This document shows, piece by piece, positions 7,579 to 57,566 of a DNA stretch of 64,000 nucleotides. Origin of the DNA: an uncultured Alphaproteobacteria bacterium. Its GTDB lineage: Bacteria; Pseudomonadota; Alphaproteobacteria; DATDPM01. Made by a program: the position numbers and the translations under genes. The notes below the pieces were generated by a model. The model had not been told where the DNA came from, made no database searches, and saw only the letters and a program-made list of their open reading frames with translations. The stretch covers positions 15,972 through 79,971 of the forward strand of contig CAWJEX010000022.1 in the NCBI GenBank assembly GCA_963841995.1. Direction: 5' to 3'. Position 1 is the first letter of the stretch; each line of letters starts with the position of its first letter.

Positions 7579-8139
7579 TCAGCGGCTGATTCTAGAAATC
7601 TTCGTTCCTTCAATGCTGACTCCGACCATCAGCCCTTGCTGATCGAATATGAAAGCGTAAGCGTCATCCTTCAGCGTTGATGTAGACAGATTCTTGGCAA
7701 CACCCTCGTTCACAATGACGACCGTCGGCCCCACGCCGATCTCCCATCCGTGTGAACGGTGGATGTAGCTTACTGCCTTATTGGTCATCAGAAAGACGGC
7801 GTATCCGTATGATTGAGCGCCGGCCTGCAGGCCCCAGGATCCAGTAAAAGAATTGTAGTAGCTGTCGATCTTCGATCCCTGTTTCAACTCGCCTTCGCCA
7901 TAGGCCGCACCGAACACCAGACCAGCTTTGACGATGTTGGGGAAAATGAGCACGGCCCTGGCCTTCTTCGAAAGGTCCTCTGCGAGGGGATTGGTTCGGT
8001 AAAGCATTTGCAGCGCGTGATCGGCGTCCCTATTGAGATCGTCCGCTGTTGCCGCGTTTGCGCGGTCAAGCACACTCGCTGATACCATGGCGCCGATAGC
8101 GACCGAAATCGCCAGAAAAAAGCCTCGGATGTTCATCAT
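7579..8139 (-). CDS. SYLF (YSC84/DUF500) lipid-binding domain protein, secreted
   Basis: Signal peptide MMNIRGFFLAISVAIGAMVSA, then ...AVLIFPNIVKAGLVFGAAYGEGEL...WGLQAGAQSYGYAVFLM, the SYLF pattern. The start is set at the Met-Met at 8139. Confidence 0.8.
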   Translation of the reverse strand: MMNIRGFFLAISVAIGAMVSASVLDRANAATADDLNRDADHALQMLYRTNPLAEDLSKKARAVLIFPNIVKAGLVFGAAYGEGELKQGSKIDSYYNSFTGSWGLQAGAQSYGYAVFLMTNKAVSYIHRSHGWEIGVGPTVVIVNEGVAKNLSTSTLKDDAYAFIFDQQGLMVGVSIEGTKISRISR

Positions 8140-8457
8140 CGTTGCATTCCTATTTTGAGAGTTATCCGACATTACCCAGATAGACGCGACATCCAGCCAA
8201 ACATGACGGCATGATAGCTCAAACGCTCCCGTCCGAGAATGCGGAAAGAGCCGGTTCTGGGCTGGATGTACCCAACATGCGGCTCCTTCCCGCTGCCAAA
8301 CCAGTTTTCGCGCCAAATTGCCTCGCTTCGGACTCACTTCGCCCATCGGCAGACCCTGAAATCGGGTTCAAAGGCAGCAGCATCGGCGTGCCGGAATAAG
8401 AGTCCGCCGGCCGTCGATTATTAGGCGTTGTCAAAACTGTTCAAGTCCGCCACCTTT

Positions 8458-8508
8458 CTCTTAACCCCAATCAGCGGGTCGCAGGTTCGAGTCCTGCTGC
8501 GCGCACCA
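8458..8508 (+). other. 3' half of a tRNA (Lys-like), no 5' half: candidate island att scar
   Basis: CTCTTAA-CCCCA-ATCAGCGGGTC-GCAGG-TTCGAGT-CCTGC-TGCGCGC-A-CCA has a T-arm, a 3' acceptor strand and CCA. No complementary GCGCGCA 5' strand lies upstream. Confidence 0.6.
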
Positions 8509-8650
8509 AATTCCCTTTGAAAAGCAAATGATTACACAGCCGCGCAAATCGGCGCCGTTCTTAGCGAAATTAGCTTAATATGTTTCCGTTGAACCCTTCA
8601 CAAGCGGCGATATCGCCACGTCGTTTCCAAAATCCAGAAAGGATACCACC

Positions 8651-9191
8651 ATGTCATCTTTCGCCCACCCGATCGCCATGTCCGCGCCGTTCACGCGCTC
8701 GGTTGCGATCGCGGCGCTGATGGGCGCCACGATGCTCGCCAGTCCGCTGACCGCGGCTCGCGCCGATACCGCCACTAACGCGCCAATCCAGCTGGCGCAG
8801 GCCGCTGCTCCACAGAGCCAGCCCGCCGCGGGAGCCACCGAGACGAAGGCGGAGACCGTCGAGCAGCGGATCACCAGCCTTCACACGTCGCTGCAGATCA
8901 CGCCCAACGAGGAAGCGAAATGGAACAGCGTCGCGCAGGCGATGCGTGACAATGCCGCCGCGATGGAAAAGCTGGTCGCGGAAACGAACCGCCCAGGCCC
9001 CGCAAAGCATGACCGCGGTGGACGATCTGAAGACCTACCAGAAATTCGCCCAGGCGCATGTCGACGGGCTGAAGAACCTGATCTCGTCGTTCGAAACGCT
9101 CTACAATTCAATGCCTGATCCGCAGAAGAAGGTCGCCGACCAGGTGTTCCAGGAACTCCGCGTCACCAGGGCGCTCCGGTCGCATAGCTAG
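8651..9191 (+). pseudogene. Spy/CpxP-like (LTXXQ-type) periplasmic protein, frameshift near 8990
   Basis: The signal peptide and ...NEEAKWNSVAQAMRDNAAAMEKLVAET are in the first frame. It continues as ...APQSMTAVDDLKTYQKFAQAHVDGLKNLISSFETLYNSMPDPQKKVADQVF in the second frame (ORF 8946..9191). Confidence 0.6.
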
Positions 9192-9247
9192 CAGGGCCAA
9201 CGGTCGCGTTCCGCGACGTGACATCATGCTCATCAGAGGAGGTCGCC

Positions 9248-9556
9248 ATGACCTGCATCATCGACACTAAATCGAAACGCCACCTGTCGGCGAAGCTTGC
9301 GGCAGGGCTCGCAATCTCCGCCTTTCTCGTGCTCGGGACGTTTGTCGCATCGGCCAACGCGCAACCGCACCGAGGCGATCATCACCGTGGCGGGGATCAC
9401 CGCGGCGATCGTGGACATGGCGACTGGGGCGGCGGCTATTATCCCGCGCCCCCGGTGGTCTACGCCGCGCCGTCGCCGTACTATTATCCGCCGCCGGTGG
9501 TTTACGGCCCTGCCATCGGCATATATCTGCCGGGCGTCAGCATCCTGATTCGGTAA
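9248..9556 (+). CDS. small secreted His/Gly/Pro/Tyr-rich protein
   Basis: Signal-like LAAGLAISAFLVLGTFVASANA, then HRGDHHRGGDHRGDRGHGDWGGGYYPAPPVVY repeats. No family recognised. Confidence 0.45.
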   Translation: MTCIIDTKSKRHLSAKLAAGLAISAFLVLGTFVASANAQPHRGDHHRGGDHRGDRGHGDWGGGYYPAPPVVYAAPSPYYYPPPVVYGPAIGIYLPGVSILIR

Positions 9557-9790
9557 GCGCCAGCCTGACCCGGAAGGCAATACCGGCCAGCAATGCCGGC
9601 CGTTTGCCGTCGTCTTCGGCGTAGTGGCTGCACATCCGGCAGCACTCTCGGCGATGCGTGTCCAGGAGATCGGCCATCGATCCAAATTTAAGTTGTGATT
9701 TCACCGGCCTGGTACCGAATCTGCCGCATTTTCGGGAGCACACGATCAGTAGCGATCACAACAACAGATCGGAACCGAGGATTACTGAAT

Positions 9791-9952
9791 ATGAAAGACT
9801 TTGAAATTCAGCATGCGGCGGCGGAGCTCATTATGCGCCATGGTGCGAACGCTTTGGCGGTGGCGCGGGAGTGGGCAGAAAAACTCTCTGGTTCACGGGA
9901 CAAGGCTGCGTTCAAGGCCGCCTTGCGGGTCCTCACGGCGCATCCCTACTAA
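9791..9952 (+). CDS. hypothetical small protein
   Basis: ATG at 9791 inside ORF 9695..9952 (MKDFEIQHAAAELIMRHGANALAVAREWAEKL...). No family recognised. Confidence 0.3.
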   Translation: MKDFEIQHAAAELIMRHGANALAVAREWAEKLSGSRDKAAFKAALRVLTAHPY

Positions 9953-9960
9953 GTCGCCTC

Positions 9961-10226
9961 GGGTATCCCGGGCGGCGTCTATGACGGCAATCCGGAGGAT
10001 ACGCCGACCTTTGGCACCCAGACGTTGATCATTGCGTCGGCGCGGATGCCCGACGATCTCGCCTATGCCGTGGTCAAGGCACTGTTCGAGAATTTCGACG
10101 ATTTTCGGCGCTTGCATCCCGCGCTGTCGACGCTCACGAAATAGGACATGGTGCCCAGCGACGCGGTGATGCGAATTCCATCCGGGGGCGCTCAGGTACT
10201 ATCGCGAGGCAGGGCTGCTGCGCTGA
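9961..10226 (+). pseudogene. TAXI-family TRAP solute receptor, C-terminal remnant with in-frame stop and frameshift
   Basis: GIPGGVYDGNPEDTPTFGTQTLIIASARMPDDLAYAVVKALFENFDDFRRLHPAL..., then a stop. The last codons read FHPGALRYYREAGLLR* only after a 1-nt shift. Confidence 0.6.
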
Positions 10227-10354
10227 ATATCGAAATCTGAGTTCGCTTGCTCCGGACTGCTATTGTCGCGGGAGCAAGTCGCCGTAAGAAACGCCTTGGG
10301 CGAACGACAGGGTAGCGTGCTATCAGGGACGGCACGAGCCCAGCGGAGGGCCGA

Positions 10355-11191
10355 ATGGCAGTGTGGTGGCTGATACTGACGCGCACGTGGCGACGGGCGC
10401 GAAAGGACAATCTCTTGGGCCTCGCCGCCGGAGCCGCTTATTACGCGGTCCTTTCCATCTTTCCGGCGCTCACGGCAGTTGTTTCGCTTTACGGCCTCGT
10501 CGCCGATCCGAACATTGTGGAGCGGCAGGTCACGGCCATACAGGGGCTCTTACTGCCCGAAGCCGTCGAGTTGATCTCAACATGGCTTCAGACCCTTGCG
10601 CAAGGCCCGCCACTCAGGTTCGGCATCGGCCTCATCCTGAGCGTGGTGCTGGCGATCTGGAGTGCCTGGTCCGCAACAGGAATGCTGATGGTCGCCGTCA
10701 ATGTCTGCTACGGGGAGACGGAGAAGCGAAATTTCATCTGGTTCCACCTGCGTGCCTTGGCGCTCGCTCTCGGACTCGCGCTGTTTGGCATTGCAGCGCT
10801 CGGCCTCATTGCGGTGTTGCCCGCGGCAATCGGCTTTTTGCCGGTGTCCAAAGCCTGGGGCGACGTAATTGCGCTCGTTCGCTGGCCGATCCTGGCTGGG
10901 ATGGCCATCCTCGCGCTCGCCATCGTATATCGCTACGCCCCGGACCGGGTGCAGCCGAAATGGCAATTGCTCAGTTGGGGAGCGGCCACAGCGACAGCGC
11001 TGTGGCTCTTCGGCTCGATTGTCTTCACAATGTTCGTTTCAAAAGTTGGCAGTTACGACAAGACCTACGGCTCGCTCGGCGCCGTCGTTATCTTGCTGCT
11101 GTGGCTCTACTTGAGCGCCTATATCATCTTGATCGGTGCGGAACTGAACGCGGAAATAGAGCGTCAAGCGGCGCCGAAGGGCAAGCGGTAG
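10355..11191 (+). CDS. YihY/BrkB family membrane protein
   Basis: 278 aa with LAAGAAYYAVLSIFPALTAVVSLYG...YGSLGAVVILLLWLYLSAYIILIGAELNAE, the YihY signature. Confidence 0.85.
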   Translation: MAVWWLILTRTWRRARKDNLLGLAAGAAYYAVLSIFPALTAVVSLYGLVADPNIVERQVTAIQGLLLPEAVELISTWLQTLAQGPPLRFGIGLILSVVLAIWSAWSATGMLMVAVNVCYGETEKRNFIWFHLRALALALGLALFGIAALGLIAVLPAAIGFLPVSKAWGDVIALVRWPILAGMAILALAIVYRYAPDRVQPKWQLLSWGAATATALWLFGSIVFTMFVSKVGSYDKTYGSLGAVVILLLWLYLSAYIILIGAELNAEIERQAAPKGKR

Positions 11192-11199
11192 GCGACCCC

Positions 11200-11583
11200 A
11201 TGGCAAAGTTCATGCGCGGCTTGCTGGTGACCATCACCGCGATCGTGAGCACCTCGGCCTCCACATACGCCGGCGATGCAGCCTTTGGCACAATCGCTCC
11301 TGGGGCATATCTGGGAAACCAGCAAGCCGGAATGCAACAGATGTGTCTCAAGGCGCAGAACAATTATGTCAATCACGCCGGACCGCCGCCGCCACCAGCC
11401 TGTCAGACTGCCACGGCCCCGATGCTGCCTAATCGTAAGGCAACACAGGCCACGCCGCAGACTTCGTGCCTGCCTTTCGGTAACGGCGGGACGCGCTGCA
11501 CGACCTTGGTTCCCAGCAAGCCTCCGAGCGCTACGACTTGTCTACCCCTTGGAAATGGAAAGATGGCCTGTACGGCGCAATAA
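11200..11583 (+). CDS. small secreted six-Cys protein, paralog A
   Basis: Signal peptide MAKFMRGLLVTITAIVSTSASTYA and an internal duplicated motif CLPxGNGxxxCT. A near-identical paralog lies at 52193..52579. Confidence 0.6.
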   Translation: MAKFMRGLLVTITAIVSTSASTYAGDAAFGTIAPGAYLGNQQAGMQQMCLKAQNNYVNHAGPPPPPACQTATAPMLPNRKATQATPQTSCLPFGNGGTRCTTLVPSKPPSATTCLPLGNGKMACTAQ

Positions 11584-50370: not shown

Positions 50371-50520
50371 GGTCTGGTGCCGAGGGGCGGGATTCTTCAA
50401 GTCATAAAAATCAGTGGGTTACAAAAAAGTGGGACACTGAATCTTCCCGTGGCGTTATTAGGCTTTCCGGGGAAAGTGTCCCACCGGTTTTGCGTCATTA
50501 ACACGGAAGACCGACGAATC
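50371..50520 (+). repeat. dispersed composite repeat, copy 7 (no left arm)
   Basis: 21-mer variant at 50375-50395 and hairpin arms at 50429-50437 / 50476-50484. The right flank is shared with copy 2. Confidence 0.85.
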
Positions 50521-50775: not shown

Positions 50776-50981
50776 TGACCTGACCGGGCCTTTTTGTACC
50801 AAGCGGTTTGATAGAAACTGGCTTGGAAAGGAGCTTGGTCATGGCGAAGAAGAGGTTCAGCCCGGAGCAGATCGTGACGCTGCTGCGGCAGATCGAAGTA
50901 GCGACGGCGCAAGGGAAATCGGTGTCGGTGGCATGCCGGGAGGCTGGGATTTCGGATCAGAGTTATTTCCGCTGGTACAAA
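50776..50981 (+). mobile_element. IS3-family remnant: IRL-like end + first ~47 codons of OrfA
   Basis: TGACCTGACCGGGCC at 50776. [45 protein letters not shown], then homology stops. Confidence 0.6.
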
Positions 50982-51548
50982 AATCCGTCAGGCCACCCAG
51001 CCGCCGCTCGGCTCTCACGCGGATTTCGGCGGCATCTACCTCTAACTGGCGGTTCTTCGCTTGGCGGGCGTAGGCGGCTAAAGCAGTGGCTTGGTCGCGG
51101 ATGTCCTTCACTGCATCAACAGATTTTGCCTCTGCAAGCGCAAAGCAAGCGGAGCCGTTTTAGGCGCTTGGCGGTCATCGGGCAGTGCAGATTATGTGAT
51201 CGCCTCGACGAATTTCCGGGAAGCCCGCCGTAGATGTCTTCAGTCCAGGCTCACACACAACGGCTGATCCCGTCCATCGATCAAGATGAATTAATCCGAT
51301 CGATTGATGGCCTATCGAATGATATCCCCCTCGCAAGGCGATAAGGATTACCACTGCAACAACGGCGACGGCGAAAATGATTGAAATGCGTAAATTCATA
51401 ATCCGAATATGACACGGATCACAGAACTGCTTAATCATCAAGATGGCTTGATTTCAAGCTGACCTACTACCGACCCGTCTGGGCTTCCGATAGGCTGCGG
51501 CCTTAAGGCCATCTTTACCGTTACCGGGGATAATCATAGCAAGCAGCA

Positions 51549-52076
51549 GTGGGCCTGCGACTTGGGCGCCGGCCGAAAACCCTTGGGGGATGGTCGGAAT
51601 CCGTGGGAACCATCGAACGCACCACCAAGGCGGTCACTATCGTAATGGCCGATGACGATCGCGACGACCGCATGCTGGTCAAGGATGCGTTCGCGGAAAC
51701 GTACCCCGCCTGCGGCCTCGATTTTGTCGAAAACGGGGAAGAGCTGCTCGATTACCTGGCTCAGCGCGGCAAAGGTGCGCCCTATCCGGGACTGATTCTC
51801 CTTGACCTCAATATGCCGAGAATGGATGGCCGCGAGGCGCTGGCGGAGATTAAGAGGAATCGGAACCTCAGGCGCATTCCGGTCGTGATCTTCACGACCT
51901 CACGTGCTGAAAACGATATTCGGCACACGTATGACCTCGGCGCAAGTTCCTTCATCACCAAGCCAGTAACGTTCGAGGGATTGCTCGAAGTCATCCGTGC
52001 ATTTGGCAAATACTGGACGGAAATCGTAGAGCTTCCGTGCGGCCGCGCACTGCCAGTCCCGCAAGAGACTTCGTAA
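51549..52076 (+). CDS. single-domain response regulator, paralog of 26263..26742
   Basis: IVMADDDRDDRML...LILLDLNMPRMDGREALAEIKRNRNLRRIPVVIF...GASSFITKP. The start codon is uncertain. Confidence 0.7.
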   Translation: MGLRLGRRPKTLGGWSESVGTIERTTKAVTIVMADDDRDDRMLVKDAFAETYPACGLDFVENGEELLDYLAQRGKGAPYPGLILLDLNMPRMDGREALAEIKRNRNLRRIPVVIFTTSRAENDIRHTYDLGASSFITKPVTFEGLLEVIRAFGKYWTEIVELPCGRALPVPQETS

Positions 52077-52192
52077 CATCGCCCCCGAGCGCCACAACCT
52101 TGGTTAAGCGCAGGGCTCCATCAATAAAGAACCTCGCCAGCGTGAACCGGTGTCCGGCTGGCGAAGCGGAGGGGCAAGCGGTGGGCAACCCT

Positions 52193-52579
52193 ATGGCAAA
52201 GTTCAAGCGCAGCTTGTTAGTGACCATCATCGCGATTTTAAGCACCTCGATCTCTGCATACGCCGGCGATGCAGCCTTTGGCACAATCGGTCCTGGGGCA
52301 TATCTCGGAAACCAGCAAGCCGGCATGCAACAGATGTGTCGCAACGCTCTGAATAATTATCTCAATCGCGCCGGGCCGCCGCCGCCCGCGGCGTGTCAAA
52401 CCGCCAACACCCCGACGCTACCTAATCGTTCAAAGGTAACACAGCTCACGCCGCAAACTTCGTGCTTGCCTTTCGGCAATGGTGGGACGCGCTGCACGAC
52501 CTTGGTACCCGGCCACCCTCCGAGCGCTACCACCTGCCTGCCGCTCGGAAATGGAAAGATGGCCTGCACGACGCAATAA
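52193..52579 (+). CDS. small secreted six-Cys protein, paralog B
   Basis: MAKFKRSLLVTIIAILSTSISAYA signal. It is collinear with 11200..11583, including both CLPxGNGxxxCT motifs. Confidence 0.6.
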   Translation: MAKFKRSLLVTIIAILSTSISAYAGDAAFGTIGPGAYLGNQQAGMQQMCRNALNNYLNRAGPPPPAACQTANTPTLPNRSKVTQLTPQTSCLPFGNGGTRCTTLVPGHPPSATTCLPLGNGKMACTTQ

Positions 52580-52722
52580 ATCGTCGACCTCATCGTGGCT
52601 ACCGCCGCGGTGACGATATGAAGGAATTTTTCAAGGGCTGGGATTCCGACGCGGTTTTCGCGCGGCAAAGAAGAGTGGTGGCAGAGCGGTGCTTTTGCGA
52701 TGGCAAGGGCCTCCTTCCGCTG

Positions 52723-52917
52723 TCATCCCACTTTGTACCGTTTCGCGATGGGCAAATCCGGTTTCTCAGCCGAACCTCCGGACACTGGCACTTCCACTCT
52801 CACTCTGGGATCACCGAGTAGTCTTCGCAGTTCTTGCACCTTCCGAAGGTCCTCAGTCGCCGCGATAAGACCAGCTGCTTCCTCTTGCTTCTTACGGTCA
52901 GAGGAATTTTCCGTCAT
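52723..52917 (-). CDS. 64-aa charged small protein whose start overlaps the stop of the Ntn hydrolase gene
   Basis: The ATG at 52917 overlaps the upstream stop (ATGA). Sequence is MTENSSDRKKQEEAAGLIAATEDLRKVQELRRLLGDP...KRYKVG, ending in Gly. Confidence 0.45.
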   Translation of the reverse strand: MTENSSDRKKQEEAAGLIAATEDLRKVQELRRLLGDPRVRVEVPVSGGSAEKPDLPIAKRYKVG

Positions 52918-53813
52918 GGTTCGAACTCCTTGATGGCCGCATCCCAGTCCTGGTGTTGAACCCAATGAAACGGCCGATCAGTCCTGATAACGGCTATTTC
53001 GATCGGTCCTCCACAAAGTCGAGGATTTAGAGAAAACTTCATTGCTTTGATCGTTGTGAGTAATGCCGCATGTGTGAAGTCAATTGCTTCTCGTATTGGC
53101 ACCGTTGGCGGATGAACCAGCTTATAGGGTGCGACGATGGCATCAAACTCTTGCGGAGTTCCTAACCATTTTTTCGACGCGAGGATGGCGCTGCGCACTT
53201 CATCGCCGCATCCGTTTATCAACCTTGTTATCATCGCTGGGACGCCCCAGAAAGACTGGGCTGGAGGAAGTTGATGTGGCGTCGGTTTCCCGCGCAAAGG
53301 ATCGAAGATAATTTCGAAGGCCGCAGGGATTCGATCTGGCAGCACATAACCGCCAATGCAGAAGCCAGCCACGAGCCTGTCCTTAAGCTCTGTAAAATAA
53401 AATTCTTCCTGGATAGTCCTTCTTCTGGGATCAAGCGCAGGTGCTGCTAAGTCAAAGGCAAAAGGCAATTTGGCATCCAACAACTTAAGAGTCGCGATTT
53501 CATTAGCCAAAGATACGGAGTAAATCGACCACACTTGGTCTGCCCAGCGATTGGCTACATCCAAGACGCTAGGGGCGGAAGTTGCTCGTAGGTTATCTGC
53601 AAGAAGAGCAGCAAGCGTTCGATAGCTGCCAAATGAAAAGGCGGCCAACCCCCATGTGACTATGCCGAGTGTTCCTGTTCCTGCAGCACCAATCTCAAAC
53701 AGCTTTTGGCCGTAGTTGAAATGATGGGAGCCACTAGGAAACGTATATGTAGAGGCACTGTCGGCGCCGAGCACGACGCCTTCTGGCGACAGATAGCACG
53801 CCGCTATGGTCAC
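52914..53813 (-). CDS. proteasome-like N-terminal-nucleophile (Thr1) hydrolase, orphan
   Basis: Starts M-T-IAACYLSPEGVVLGADS (Thr1, Asp17 after Met removal), Lys at position 36, and C-terminal CGGPIEIAVIRTD. There is a large insert in the middle. GC is lower than the surroundings. Confidence 0.55.
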   Translation of the reverse strand: MTIAACYLSPEGVVLGADSASTYTFPSGSHHFNYGQKLFEIGAAGTGTLGIVTWGLAAFSFGSYRTLAALLADNLRATSAPSVLDVANRWADQVWSIYSVSLANEIATLKLLDAKLPFAFDLAAPALDPRRRTIQEEFYFTELKDRLVAGFCIGGYVLPDRIPAAFEIIFDPLRGKPTPHQLPPAQSFWGVPAMITRLINGCGDEVRSAILASKKWLGTPQEFDAIVAPYKLVHPPTVPIREAIDFTHAALLTTIKAMKFSLNPRLCGGPIEIAVIRTDRPFHWVQHQDWDAAIKEFEP

Positions 53814-54374
53814 AGGTCCCCAACTCCATGTACCAGGTCATAGTTTATATCAGCTGGGGTCGAATTGCAGCAAGTGTCCTAGCCCCAGGATAAGATTGTC
53901 CTAATTCGGACAGCACGCACTGGTCGGCTTAGCAAACGATAATTGATTAGGCCGTGAACCCATAAACGCGTCTTGGCGTAGCTTGCCAAAGTCTGCTGTG
54001 GAACCGTAAGCGGCTGTCACTCGCAGCAGGCGGCACTTCGGTTTCGTGCCACTTCCGGACAAATGTGTCGCCTAAAACACGGGTGCTCCCGCATTGTGGG
54101 GCGCTGCCACCAAGCAGCATATTTTTCGCGATCGATCACAAGATATTCACGCTCACGATCGAAGCAATTCGACATCGTGGTAGACCCCATCAAGAGCGCG
54201 ACGGCATGGGGTATCCTTCCGAATGCGAGAGACAGCGGACACGGGCGCGAGGCCCATGCCTGGCTGGCACTGCAACATAGCAAATCGGTGCTATAATATT
54301 GTAGTCGCGGCGGCACGGCCGCGTGAAGCGGCGCGGGCTCGCCGACCTGGCATGGATCAACAACGGAGGCAAAA

Positions 54375-54707
54375 ATGGCGCTTTTCATGTATCAAGTGGC
54401 CTACACGCCCGAATCTTGGGCCGTCCAGCTCAAGAAGCCGAAGAGCCGTATGGAGACCGTGGGCCGCAGCCTGTGTGAGGCCGCTGGAGGGAAATTCGTC
54501 GGCGCCTGGTACTGCTTCGGCGAGTATGACGGCATTCTCATCGCCGACATGCCGGATGCTGAAAGCATGTCAGCGCTCGCACTCTCGGTTGCCGCGGGCG
54601 GCGCGGCCAGAGCCGGCAAGACGACGGCGTTGATGACCGGCGCGCAAGCCGTAGCAGCCATGACGAAGGCTGCGACCCTAGCCAAATCCTATCGTCCCGC
54701 CCGTTAG
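54375..54707 (+). CDS. GYD domain protein
   Basis: MALFMYQVAYTPESW...GGKFVGAWYCFGEYDGILIADMPDAES matches the GYD family pattern. Confidence 0.7.
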   Translation: MALFMYQVAYTPESWAVQLKKPKSRMETVGRSLCEAAGGKFVGAWYCFGEYDGILIADMPDAESMSALALSVAAGGAARAGKTTALMTGAQAVAAMTKAATLAKSYRPAR

Positions 54708-56342: not shown

Positions 56343-56450
56343 ACAGGGGCGGGATTCTTCCAGTTATAAAAACCAATAGCTTACAAAAAAGTGGGACACT
56401 AAATCTTCTCACAGCGTTATTAGACTTTCCAGGGAAAGTGTCCCACTGAT
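56343..56450 (+). repeat. dispersed composite repeat, copy 8 (left-truncated inside the 21-mer)
   Basis: Starts CAGGGGCGGGATTC. Hairpin arms at 56390-56398 / 56437-56445. Confidence 0.85.
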
Positions 56451-56568
56451 TCCGTCTTAAAAACGAGGGCTACCAAACTTTCTCACTTTTTGCTCAAGAG
56501 CGGACAATCCGGGACTACGCCCTGCACTTCCACCTTTAGAGTTGGACAGCCAAATAGCCGCAGGCACC

Positions 56569-56908
56569 CTATGTGCGTTTGGCGGGTTTGTCGCTTTCGA
56601 GCGCTGTAAGGCCCGTAAGAACAACCGGGGGCCGGTTTGGGAACTCGGCAACAAGTGTTAGCTGGCCACCCAGACGCCTAACGAATTTCTGTAGTGTCGA
56701 AAGCAGCAAGTCCGATCTTTTTTCGAGTTCGCGAAACGCCATCTTGGGTAATGCCGAGTTCCTTAGCCAAGACAACTTGCGTTTTCTGGTGGGCCTGGCG
56801 CAGCTCGCGCAACGACATTTCCTCGGCGATAATCTCGGCCGCACGGGCTTTGATTTTGCCGCGCCGTTCGGGCGCTAGCCCCTTTCTGATGTGATCGATG
56901 TTCTTCAT
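56569..56908 (-). pseudogene. XRE-family HTH antitoxin (HigA-like), frameshift near 56730
   Basis: ...LRELRQAHQKTQVVLAKELGITQDGVSR continues as LEKRSDLLLSTLQKFVRRLGGQLTLVAEF in the frame of ORF 56569..56844. Confidence 0.65.
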
Positions 56909-56912
56909 ACCC

Positions 56913-57233
56913 CTACTTCCTTTCCTTCGTCTTGTCCTTCTGCTGTTTGATGCGAGTCAAATGCGCATCGAAACGAGCATCTGCCTTTGCGATCAGCTGT
57001 GCGTAAAATCGTCTTTCGTTGCCGCCCGACTTGTCACCGCCACATAAAATGATGGCCGTTCGCTCCGGGTCAAAGGCGAATGCGAAGCGCCAGACGCCAT
57101 TAGCAGCATTAAATCGTAGCTCCTTCATATTTGTGTAGCGTGAGCCATTGAGCGTATCGACGCGCGGCCGGCCCAGCTGCGGACCAATCTGTTCCAACAC
57201 TTCGATGTGAGCCAGCAATTCGTCCTGCACCAC
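56913..57233 (-). CDS. RelE/HigB-like toxin (Gp49-like), 5' end possibly frameshifted
   Basis: GPQLGRPRVDTLNGSRYTNMKELRF...VWRFAFAFDPERTAIILCGGDKSG. The frame stays open upstream to about 57285 (..WDVDLHDDFVPEYTELPQV), but the only ATG is 1 nt out of frame. Confidence 0.65.
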   Translation of the reverse strand: MVQDELLAHIEVLEQIGPQLGRPRVDTLNGSRYTNMKELRFNAANGVWRFAFAFDPERTAIILCGGDKSGGNERRFYAQLIAKADARFDAHLTRIKQQKDKTKERK

Positions 57234-57380: not shown

Positions 57381-57566
57381 CGAGCAGGTGATGGTATCCA
57401 GCGTGGGACACCGGCCTAACACATTGACAATATTTGGTATTTTGGAACTGGTGCCCAGGGGCGGAATCATTCAAGCTATAAAAACCAATGGGTTACAAAA
57501 AAGTGGGACACTGAATCTTCCCATAGCGTTATTAGGCTTTCCCTTTCCAGCGAAAGTGTCCCACCA
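57381..57566 (+). repeat. dispersed composite repeat, copy 9 (short-left-arm subtype)
   Basis: Same subtype as copy 5. 21-mer variant at 57449-57468 and hairpin arms at 57503-57511 / 57556-57564 (44-nt loop). Homology with the copy 5 flank continues to about 57725. Confidence 0.85.

Follow-up and report, generated by a model that had tools for sequence, protein, structure and literature searches.

In a 64,000-nucleotide (nt) stretch of DNA from an uncultured Alphaproteobacteria bacterium (assembly GCA_963841995.1, contig CAWJEX010000022.1, positions 15,972 to 79,971; the whole stretch is here called the window), two overlapping open reading frames (ORFs) on the minus strand encode a 299-residue proteasome-like N-terminal nucleophile (Ntn) hydrolase and, directly after it, a 64-residue protein. 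The two ORFs are best explained as an autonomous, horizontally mobile cassette. Judging from sequence comparison across loci, the 64-residue protein is the cognate, co-inherited and translationally coupled partner of the hydrolase. An earlier note, made from the letters of this DNA alone, had proposed an orphan proteasome-like hydrolase with a small overlapping ORF that could not be assigned to a described system. That reading was essentially right: it had picked out an Ntn hydrolase of the proteasome-like kind whose dedicated partner had so far gone unnoticed. As far as we have found, the conserved partner gene, its motif, and the arrangement of the pair as cargo of an insertion sequence (IS) are undescribed in the literature. 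The features of the cassette, in window coordinates, are:

52914-53813, minus strand: hydrolase gene with a GTG start, encoding a 299-residue, propeptide-less Thr1 proteasome-family (Ntn) hydrolase (ORF, AlphaFold2 model, Foldseek matches, and at least 952 homologs)
53808-53813, minus strand: GTG start and Thr codon; Thr is residue 1 after Met removal and the predicted nucleophile
53760-53762, minus strand: Asp18 codon, the equivalent of proteasome Asp17, within a GADS motif
53703-53705, minus strand: Lys37 codon, the proposed equivalent of proteasome Lys33
53004-53015, minus strand: Cys267-Gly-Gly-Pro, aligning with proteasome Ser169-Gly-Gly in a low-probability local match
52926-52931, minus strand: AAGGAG Shine-Dalgarno sequence for the partner, inside the 3' end of the hydrolase gene (read from the sequence)
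52914-52917, minus strand: ATGA stop/start overlap, indicative of translational coupling (read from the sequence)
52723-52917, minus strand: partner gene, 64 residues, a predicted long helix followed by an extended tail
52789-52827, minus strand: conserved partner motif RRLLGDPRVRVEV, residues 31-43
52700-54000, no strand: low-GC islet holding the cassette, with a drop in both GC and GC at third codon positions (GC3)

The hydrolase and its predicted active site

The hydrolase gene starts with GTG (53813-53811) rather than the ATG assumed in the earlier note, although the length of 299 residues and the N-terminus, which reads MTIAACYLSPEGVVLGADS, are as described there. Pfam, NCBIfam and PADLOC (PADLOC 2.0) models gave no match to the protein even at E ≤ 10, and a sequence and profile search of the PDB returned only sub-threshold matches to proteasome beta1 (E 0.2-0.5; at best 0.26 in the profile search). 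In keeping with the earlier statement that no known system could be named, no described family or defence model matches the cassette. Membership of the hydrolase in the proteasome-like Ntn superfamily rests on the predicted fold together with the active-site residues. The family itself is large: at least 952 homologs were found at E ≤ 1e-3 in a set of 5.8 billion proteins, a search at the 50% clustering level gave 539 representatives, and the family is entirely unannotated. Their hosts are all bacterial and include Alpha-, Beta- and Gammaproteobacteria, many Planctomycetota, Myxococcota, Nitrospirota and Acidobacteriota.

An AlphaFold2 model of the hydrolase, built on an alignment of 32 family sequences (alignment A1), had a mean predicted local distance difference test score (pLDDT) of 83 and a predicted template modelling score (pTM) of 0.81. 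When this model was compared with the PDB by Foldseek, the top match was Anbu (5nyw; E 5e-8, template modelling score 0.64 normalised to the target), and 272 structures matched at E ≤ 1e-3, the top 50 all being Anbu or 20S proteasome subunits. On this model, the 299-residue protein has the proteasome-family alpha-beta-beta-alpha Ntn fold, as had been suspected from its first residues.

The catalytic pattern recognised in the earlier note (Thr, Asp and Lys) is borne out by conservation. Invariant in A1 are T2, D18, S19, Q36, K37, W54-G55 and C267-G-G-P. The segment eGvvlGADStst aligns with DGVILGADSRTT of proteasome beta1 (residues 10-22), which contains Asp17. Near the C-terminus, residues 267-279 read CGGPIEIAVIRTD; here CGGPIEiAVIT can be set against S169-GGMIDVAVIT of the Thermoplasma beta subunit. 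As candidate counterparts of the Gly47 oxyanion hole and the Ser129/Asp166/Ser169 network, W54-G55 and C267-G-G align plausibly, C267 with S169, though at an hhalign probability of only 2.5%.

The Thr codon stands directly after the start codon in all 78 loci compared (78/78), and in each of 24 database entries that appear to carry N-terminal extensions (24/24) the residue immediately before this Thr is V, L or M, so that these entries are best explained as mis-called starts. Since the Thr follows the start codon and the extensions are mis-calls, the family has no propeptide. An initiator Met is expected to be removed before Thr, and its presumed removal here would expose the Thr as the nucleophile. 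In a few family members, among them P0166 and P0184 (which open with MSFA.../MSIA...), the N-terminal Thr is replaced by Ser, an alternation that is paralleled among the Connectases.

Relative to a canonical beta subunit, additional helices are modelled behind helix H2 (residues 103-147) and between H3 and H4 (204-230), the individual insertion helices being 103-113, 134-147, 204-212 and 220-230. The helices at 64-77 and 83-101 are retained, and the loop between strands S3 and S4 is short and of low confidence. Anbu (PDB 5nyw, 5nyj) is the best structural match, and like the hydrolase it is bacterial, has an N-terminal Thr without a long propeptide, and has no dedicated AAA+ partner; it is, however, about 60 residues shorter, lacks the insertions after H2 and between H3 and H4, and shares only about 10-12% identity. 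The Anbu operon reportedly carries genes for a transglutaminase, an ATP-grasp protein and an Alpha-E protein, none of which is conserved beside the cassette, and we know of no small RxLGDP partner for Anbu. In HslV (ClpQ), another bacterial proteasome homolog of the Thr1 type, loss of the initiator Met exposes the nucleophile, as predicted for the hydrolase. HslV has about 175 residues, forms double hexameric rings, and needs the AAA+ protein HslU encoded next to it, whereas the hydrolase has 299 residues and no conserved ATPase gene at its side.

A further parallel lies in a survey that described 22 new groups of proteasome homologs, including the PMI groups (Proteasome homologs with Multiple Insertions), which are uncharacterised bacterial proteins without propeptides (Fuchs, Alva & Lupas 2021; PMC8665760). 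Their insertions fall after H1/H2 in PMI-3 and PMI-4 and between H3 and H4 in PMI-2 to PMI-6, and insertions at such sites are considered incompatible with ring formation (PMC8665760). By comparison with this published description, the hydrolase fits the PMI architecture in its insertion sites and its lack of a propeptide. Assignment to a named PMI group by accession was tried and abandoned: the accessions of ten family members differ from those of the published representatives (e.g., HDY66466.1, WP_179179973.1). The authors of the survey found no genomic context suggestive of function for their groups (PMC8665760), whereas the family studied here has a conserved partner gene beside it. Judging from titles and abstracts, and from a term search in one of them, the later papers in the searched library that cite the survey neither characterise these groups nor add such context.

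Residues 3-59 of the hydrolase, and residues 3-92 of its homologs in loci L001 and L084, match phrog_5990 in register (E 1e-3 to 3e-8). This is a phage protein family of 427 positions and of unknown function, and the match in PHROGs is weak and confined to the N-terminal part; it suggests that a related Thr1 hydrolase family exists in phages. A structure search of BFVD yielded just distant, short phage proteasome-like proteins.

The partner protein and its conserved motif

The stop codon of the hydrolase (TGA, 52916-52914) overlaps the start codon of the partner (ATG, 52917-52915), as had been read earlier, and the AAGGAG lies 8 nt upstream of that ATG. The 64-residue product is also recorded by gene callers (P0345); an alternative version of 80 residues with a TTG start was returned by the ORF lister. 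Partners in other genomes were found first by a regular expression and then with a profile hidden Markov model (HMM) applied to 84 hydrolase loci at a threshold of E < 1e-3. Directly downstream of the hydrolase, the HMM matched in 57 of the 84 loci, with E-values down to 1e-29. Of 48 loci compared for spacing, most show an overlap of 1-23 nt between the two genes, or else the partner begins within a few nt after the hydrolase stop. The small ORF is thus conserved, as the earlier note had expected of a genuine module. Because the hydrolase has at least 952 homologs and the partner profile recurs in so many of the loci, the pair is beyond what chance would produce.

About 11 further loci have weaker matches at the same position, with variants that include LGDQ, LGSP, LGNP and LGDI. 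Several of the loci that lack a partner match lie at a contig edge or hold a partial hydrolase match only. In the most divergent hydrolase clades, other small downstream ORFs are found with an element of two hydrophobic residues followed by G and S or D. It seems that the architecture of an enzyme followed by a small ORF outlasts recognisable partner sequence. The small ORFs after these divergent hydrolases look unrelated to the partner (L075:8791-9084, L077:8791-9081, L056:8858-9103 and L064:8699-9103), one type being of about 95 residues with ...LVFGSW... and another having ...KRYGK...

The conserved core of the partner reads T-G-x-Y-R-x-x-D-L-R-R-[LV]-L-G-D-P-x-x-x-V-E-V, in which the Gly is kept in 56, the Pro in 51 and the Asp in 49 of the 57 loci, and RRLLGDPRVRVEV is the sole full match to this motif within the window. 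Towards its N-terminus the partner is often basic; this part varies, as does the C-terminal tail. In a large protein database the family comprises 88 called proteins of 45-122 residues, never fused to another domain. No significant match to the partner was found in Pfam, in NCBIfam or among PADLOC models (the last at E ≤ 10), nor does any Pfam domain occur in the called homologs; one of 34 partners gave a weak match to HTH_30 (E 0.019). AlphaFold2 predicted the partner alone as a helix from residue 5 to 34, ending ...RRLL, with coil from G35-D-P through the tail (pLDDT 65).

The two proteins are inherited and diverge as a unit, since their pairwise distances are correlated (Mantel r 0.68, a value reached in 0 of 2000 permutations). 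The partner evolves faster, with a mean distance of 0.74 vs 0.51 for the hydrolase.

In one database protein of 320 residues (P0149), residues 1-237 of the hydrolase run on in frame into a complete partner sequence, and the C-terminal strands of the hydrolase are missing; this natural chimera is probably a deletion derivative or pseudogene. At several loci (L070, L071, L074 and L081) the hydrolase is reduced to its C-terminal half; two of these, L071 and L074, have an intact partner gene downstream.

Genomic setting and mobility

All-against-all clustering of the ORFs in the 84 loci gave no third conserved gene; only the hydrolase and its partner recur. No gene for an AAA+ protein, an alpha subunit or a PafA/Dop-like ligase is conserved beside the cassette in these loci, and no ORF of at least 120 residues in the window carries a Walker-A motif, so that the window holds no candidate AAA+ unfoldase among them. 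The orphan status claimed for the hydrolase in the earlier note is therefore upheld.

The base composition of the cassette sets it apart, as had also been remarked. GC is 0.505-0.52 over 52800-53999 vs 0.575-0.66 on either side, and GC3 is 0.49 in the hydrolase gene vs 0.66-0.75 in four neighbouring genes. This low GC and low GC3 point to horizontal acquisition of the cassette. Among the genes nearest to the cassette across the loci are those for IS1595-family transposases (6 loci), phage-type integrases, serine recombinases or resolvases, and PIN proteins. In some loci prophage genes (terminase, NinB) are close by, and in some there are defence genes: Bil with a McrA-like enzyme, Wadjet JetC/JetD, PARIS AriA, MADS and AbiLi. 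About 25 of 279 first- or second-neighbour ORFs match PADLOC models, a raw count without a matched control.

The clearest mobile unit is that of locus L004, in which imperfect terminal inverted repeats (7884-7925 and 10233-10273, AAGGTGATTATATAC...) enclose exactly the hydrolase, the partner and an IS1595 transposase. The repeats are 81% complementary over 27 nt, a match that can be drawn out to about 41 nt, and the unit of 2.4 kb (7884-10273) has A-rich sequence on each flank; it looks like a passenger-carrying IS. At L007 (7362-10164), looser, imperfect inverted repeats of about 95 nt surround the pair, a transposase and an extra upstream ORF of about 150 residues. Going by these repeats, the cassette appears to travel as IS cargo in at least L004 and L007. 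A literature search returned nothing relevant on passenger genes of IS1595. The extra ORF of about 150 residues, which belongs to no Pfam or PHROG family, is conserved in four loci with the cassette (L007:7459-7917, L036:7493-7924, L073:7490-7924 and L005:5797-6351), and these also carry IS1595-type neighbours.

At L085 (4197-6963), and also at L058 and L060, the cassette directly adjoins a complete operon for Bil (bacterial ISG15-like), a ubiquitination-type defence system, and genes for a McrA-like SRA enzyme, a nuclease and a NUDIX protein lie close by. A functional link to this ubiquitin-like system was considered, with BilD as the nearest neighbour in three loci, yet it was rejected: the three are 87-94% identical copies of one element, so they count as a single event in one lineage.

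The flanks of the cassette in the window agree with the earlier description of a repeat-bounded mosaic block. On one side, the gene at 52037-52579 has a paralog with 74% identity at 11110-11583; the products are small, Cys- and Pro-rich proteins with a signal-peptide-like N-terminus and belong to no Pfam family. On the other side, a GYD protein (PF08734) is encoded at 54375-54707. A dispersed repeat of 107 nt occurs in three direct copies (50383-50489, 56345-56451 and 57457-57563), which are 75-86% identical to the reference copy, and the cassette lies between the first two. A fragment of an IS3-type transposase orfA (HTH_Tnp_1; 50808-51233, plus strand), without an intact orfB, is an IS remnant bordering the block. 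Two other overlapping genes lie 3 kb away from the cassette, at 56678-57233 on the minus strand: a Gp49/HigB-like toxin gene (PF05973) and a small helix-turn-helix gene, which form a conventional toxin-antitoxin pair.

Possible functions of the pair

The reading that we favour, tentatively and at somewhat less than an even chance, is a mobile protease/partner switch of toxin-antitoxin or defence type, in which the partner docks on the hydrolase as a dedicated substrate or pseudosubstrate. It is favoured because of the autonomy of the two genes, their patchy spread across phyla, their settings beside IS elements, integrases, prophage and defence genes, and the faster evolution of the partner. 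Overlapping adjacent genes, a small partner that evolves faster, patchy spread, and mobile or defence settings are all shared with type II toxin-antitoxin systems and two-gene defence cassettes, from which the pair differs in having no PADLOC match and no plasmid copies. Without a propeptide, and with insertions held to be incompatible with rings (PMC8665760), the hydrolase probably does not have self-compartmentalisation as a safeguard. Specificity or restraint would then come from a partner that serves as its dedicated substrate or pseudosubstrate. The linear motif of the partner would be its contact with the substrate cleft: the helix would end at the Gly, and the Asp-Pro and the short V-x-V segment after it would dock in the cleft. 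The docked partner would restrain an enzyme that has neither propeptide nor ring gating, and loss or cleavage of the partner would release the activity of the hydrolase, giving a protease-based toxin-antitoxin or defence behaviour. To our knowledge, no toxin-antitoxin or defence family has a proteasome-fold component, and a search of the literature found none.

Several observations weigh against a switch of this kind. Many loci lie amid housekeeping genes, and the tally of defence-gene neighbours stands without a matched control. Searches by tblastn found no cassette among the 72,556 plasmids of PLSDB or the 50,697 phage genomes of INPHARED, which would be unusual for an addiction module, and a single occurrence was found in IMG/VR. 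Neither protein matches any PADLOC model at E ≤ 10, and the enzyme-first gene order is the less common one for toxin-antitoxin pairs. The substitutions that follow the conserved Gly (D, S or N, then P or Q) would also fit a purely structural helix cap or turn, and since such a cap or turn would tolerate them, the motif need not contain a scissile bond.

The main rival reading draws on Connectase (DUF2121), whose specific substrate is known, as for no other proteasome homolog. Connectase works as a monomer and binds a motif of the form helix-KD|PGA-strand through induced beta-sheet pairing (PMC7980362). It shares with the hydrolase the proteasome fold, and it acts on one specific partner sequence; the likeness is one of proposed mechanism only. 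A Connectase-like transpeptidase or ligase activity, in which Thr1 attacks the Gly-Asp-Pro of the partner through an acyl or N-terminal amide intermediate and the N-terminal helical fragment is passed to another amine (by self-religation, cyclisation or target tagging) without ATP, is an unlikely alternative. The Connectase motif has a helix, a labile Asp-Pro bond that the enzyme cleaves, and a beta-pairing segment, and the partner is laid out as helix, G-D-P, xxx and V-x-V. The hydrolase is without a propeptide, and its insertions are of the kind predicted to block rings (PMC8665760). A new C-terminus of ...R-L-L-G would, moreover, resemble ubiquitin-like tails. Against this, Connectase lacks H1 and H2 and has a two-helix lid between S3 and S4, whereas the hydrolase keeps H1 and H2 and has no such lid; Connectase is outside the top 50 structural matches; the flanks of the partner motif are poorly conserved, its Asp and Pro are replaced in about 10-15% of partners, and no acceptor is identifiable. 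Connectase is also restricted to methanogens, and its substrate MtrA (KDPGA) is not encoded beside the enzyme, in contrast to the all-bacterial hydrolase with its adjacent partner. By extension of this analogy, the pair might be a minimal ATP-independent modification system in which the partner is cut at Gly-Asp-Pro and its helical fragment (...R-L-L-G or ...G-D) is transferred, in the way of Connectase or sortase, onto proteins, possibly those of phages; we regard this as quite unlikely.

Other roles for the partner do not call for ligation. It could be a gate, cap, assembly factor or adaptor, that is, a structural or regulatory subunit of a housekeeping-type compartmental protease with no toxin-like behaviour, the hydrolase being oligomeric and breaking down cellular proteins in general or specific ones. 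The closest folds are ring-forming proteases, the frequent housekeeping surroundings would suit such a role, and translational coupling suggests a stoichiometric complex; the patchy cross-phylum distribution, the atypical composition and the travel as IS cargo argue instead for a mobile accessory trait. The partner, moreover, consists chiefly of a linear motif, the rest of it being variable, and the insertions lie at ring-contact sites where they are predicted to hinder rings (PMC8665760). A subunit of this type is consequently also unlikely. An ImmA/ImmR-like switch, in which the hydrolase cleaves a DNA-binding repressor, the partner, and so induces a mobile element, would suit the several loci where integrases, resolvases or prophage genes adjoin the cassette. 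The N-terminus is basic in many partners, whose TGxYRxxDLxRxLG segment recalls a helix-turn-helix, to which the lone HTH_30 match may be added. Such a switch is nonetheless very improbable, given that the partner is modelled as one helix running into coil and lacks a recognition helix, that no helix-turn-helix family matches significantly, that many loci have no mobile element, and that no further element genes are conserved with the pair. The partner was considered as a helix-turn-helix protein and set aside on the same grounds, no helix being predicted after G-D-P. The earlier note had also compared the 64-residue protein with Pup/UBact-type tags, on account of its size and composition. A charged protein of this length, largely disordered or helical and encoded beside a proteasome homolog, does recall a degradation tag with its protease. 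The comparison fails, however, in that the partner C-terminus is not conserved, the terminal Gly occurs in a few close relatives only, there is no GGQ or GGE, conservation is centred on an internal stretch, and neither a ligase nor an unfoldase gene is conserved nearby, so that a Pup/UBact-like system is extremely improbable.

The presence of a dedicated partner turns an unknown hydrolase into a testable enzyme/partner pair, for which a candidate substrate, a candidate cleavage site (G35/D36/P37) and the catalytic residue Thr1 are all specified. Should the protease/partner switch prove true, the cassette would be the first protease-type toxin-antitoxin or defence cassette built on the proteasome fold. 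If instead the Connectase-like reading were true, the hydrolase would be the second natural ligase of the Connectase kind, one that is widespread in bacteria and might be of use in biotechnology, and if the helical fragment is transferred onto other proteins, the pair would be a one-enzyme bacterial analogue of ubiquitin-like tagging and a new, widespread family of sequence-specific protein ligases. The passenger arrangement with IS1595 shows a route by which such modules spread.

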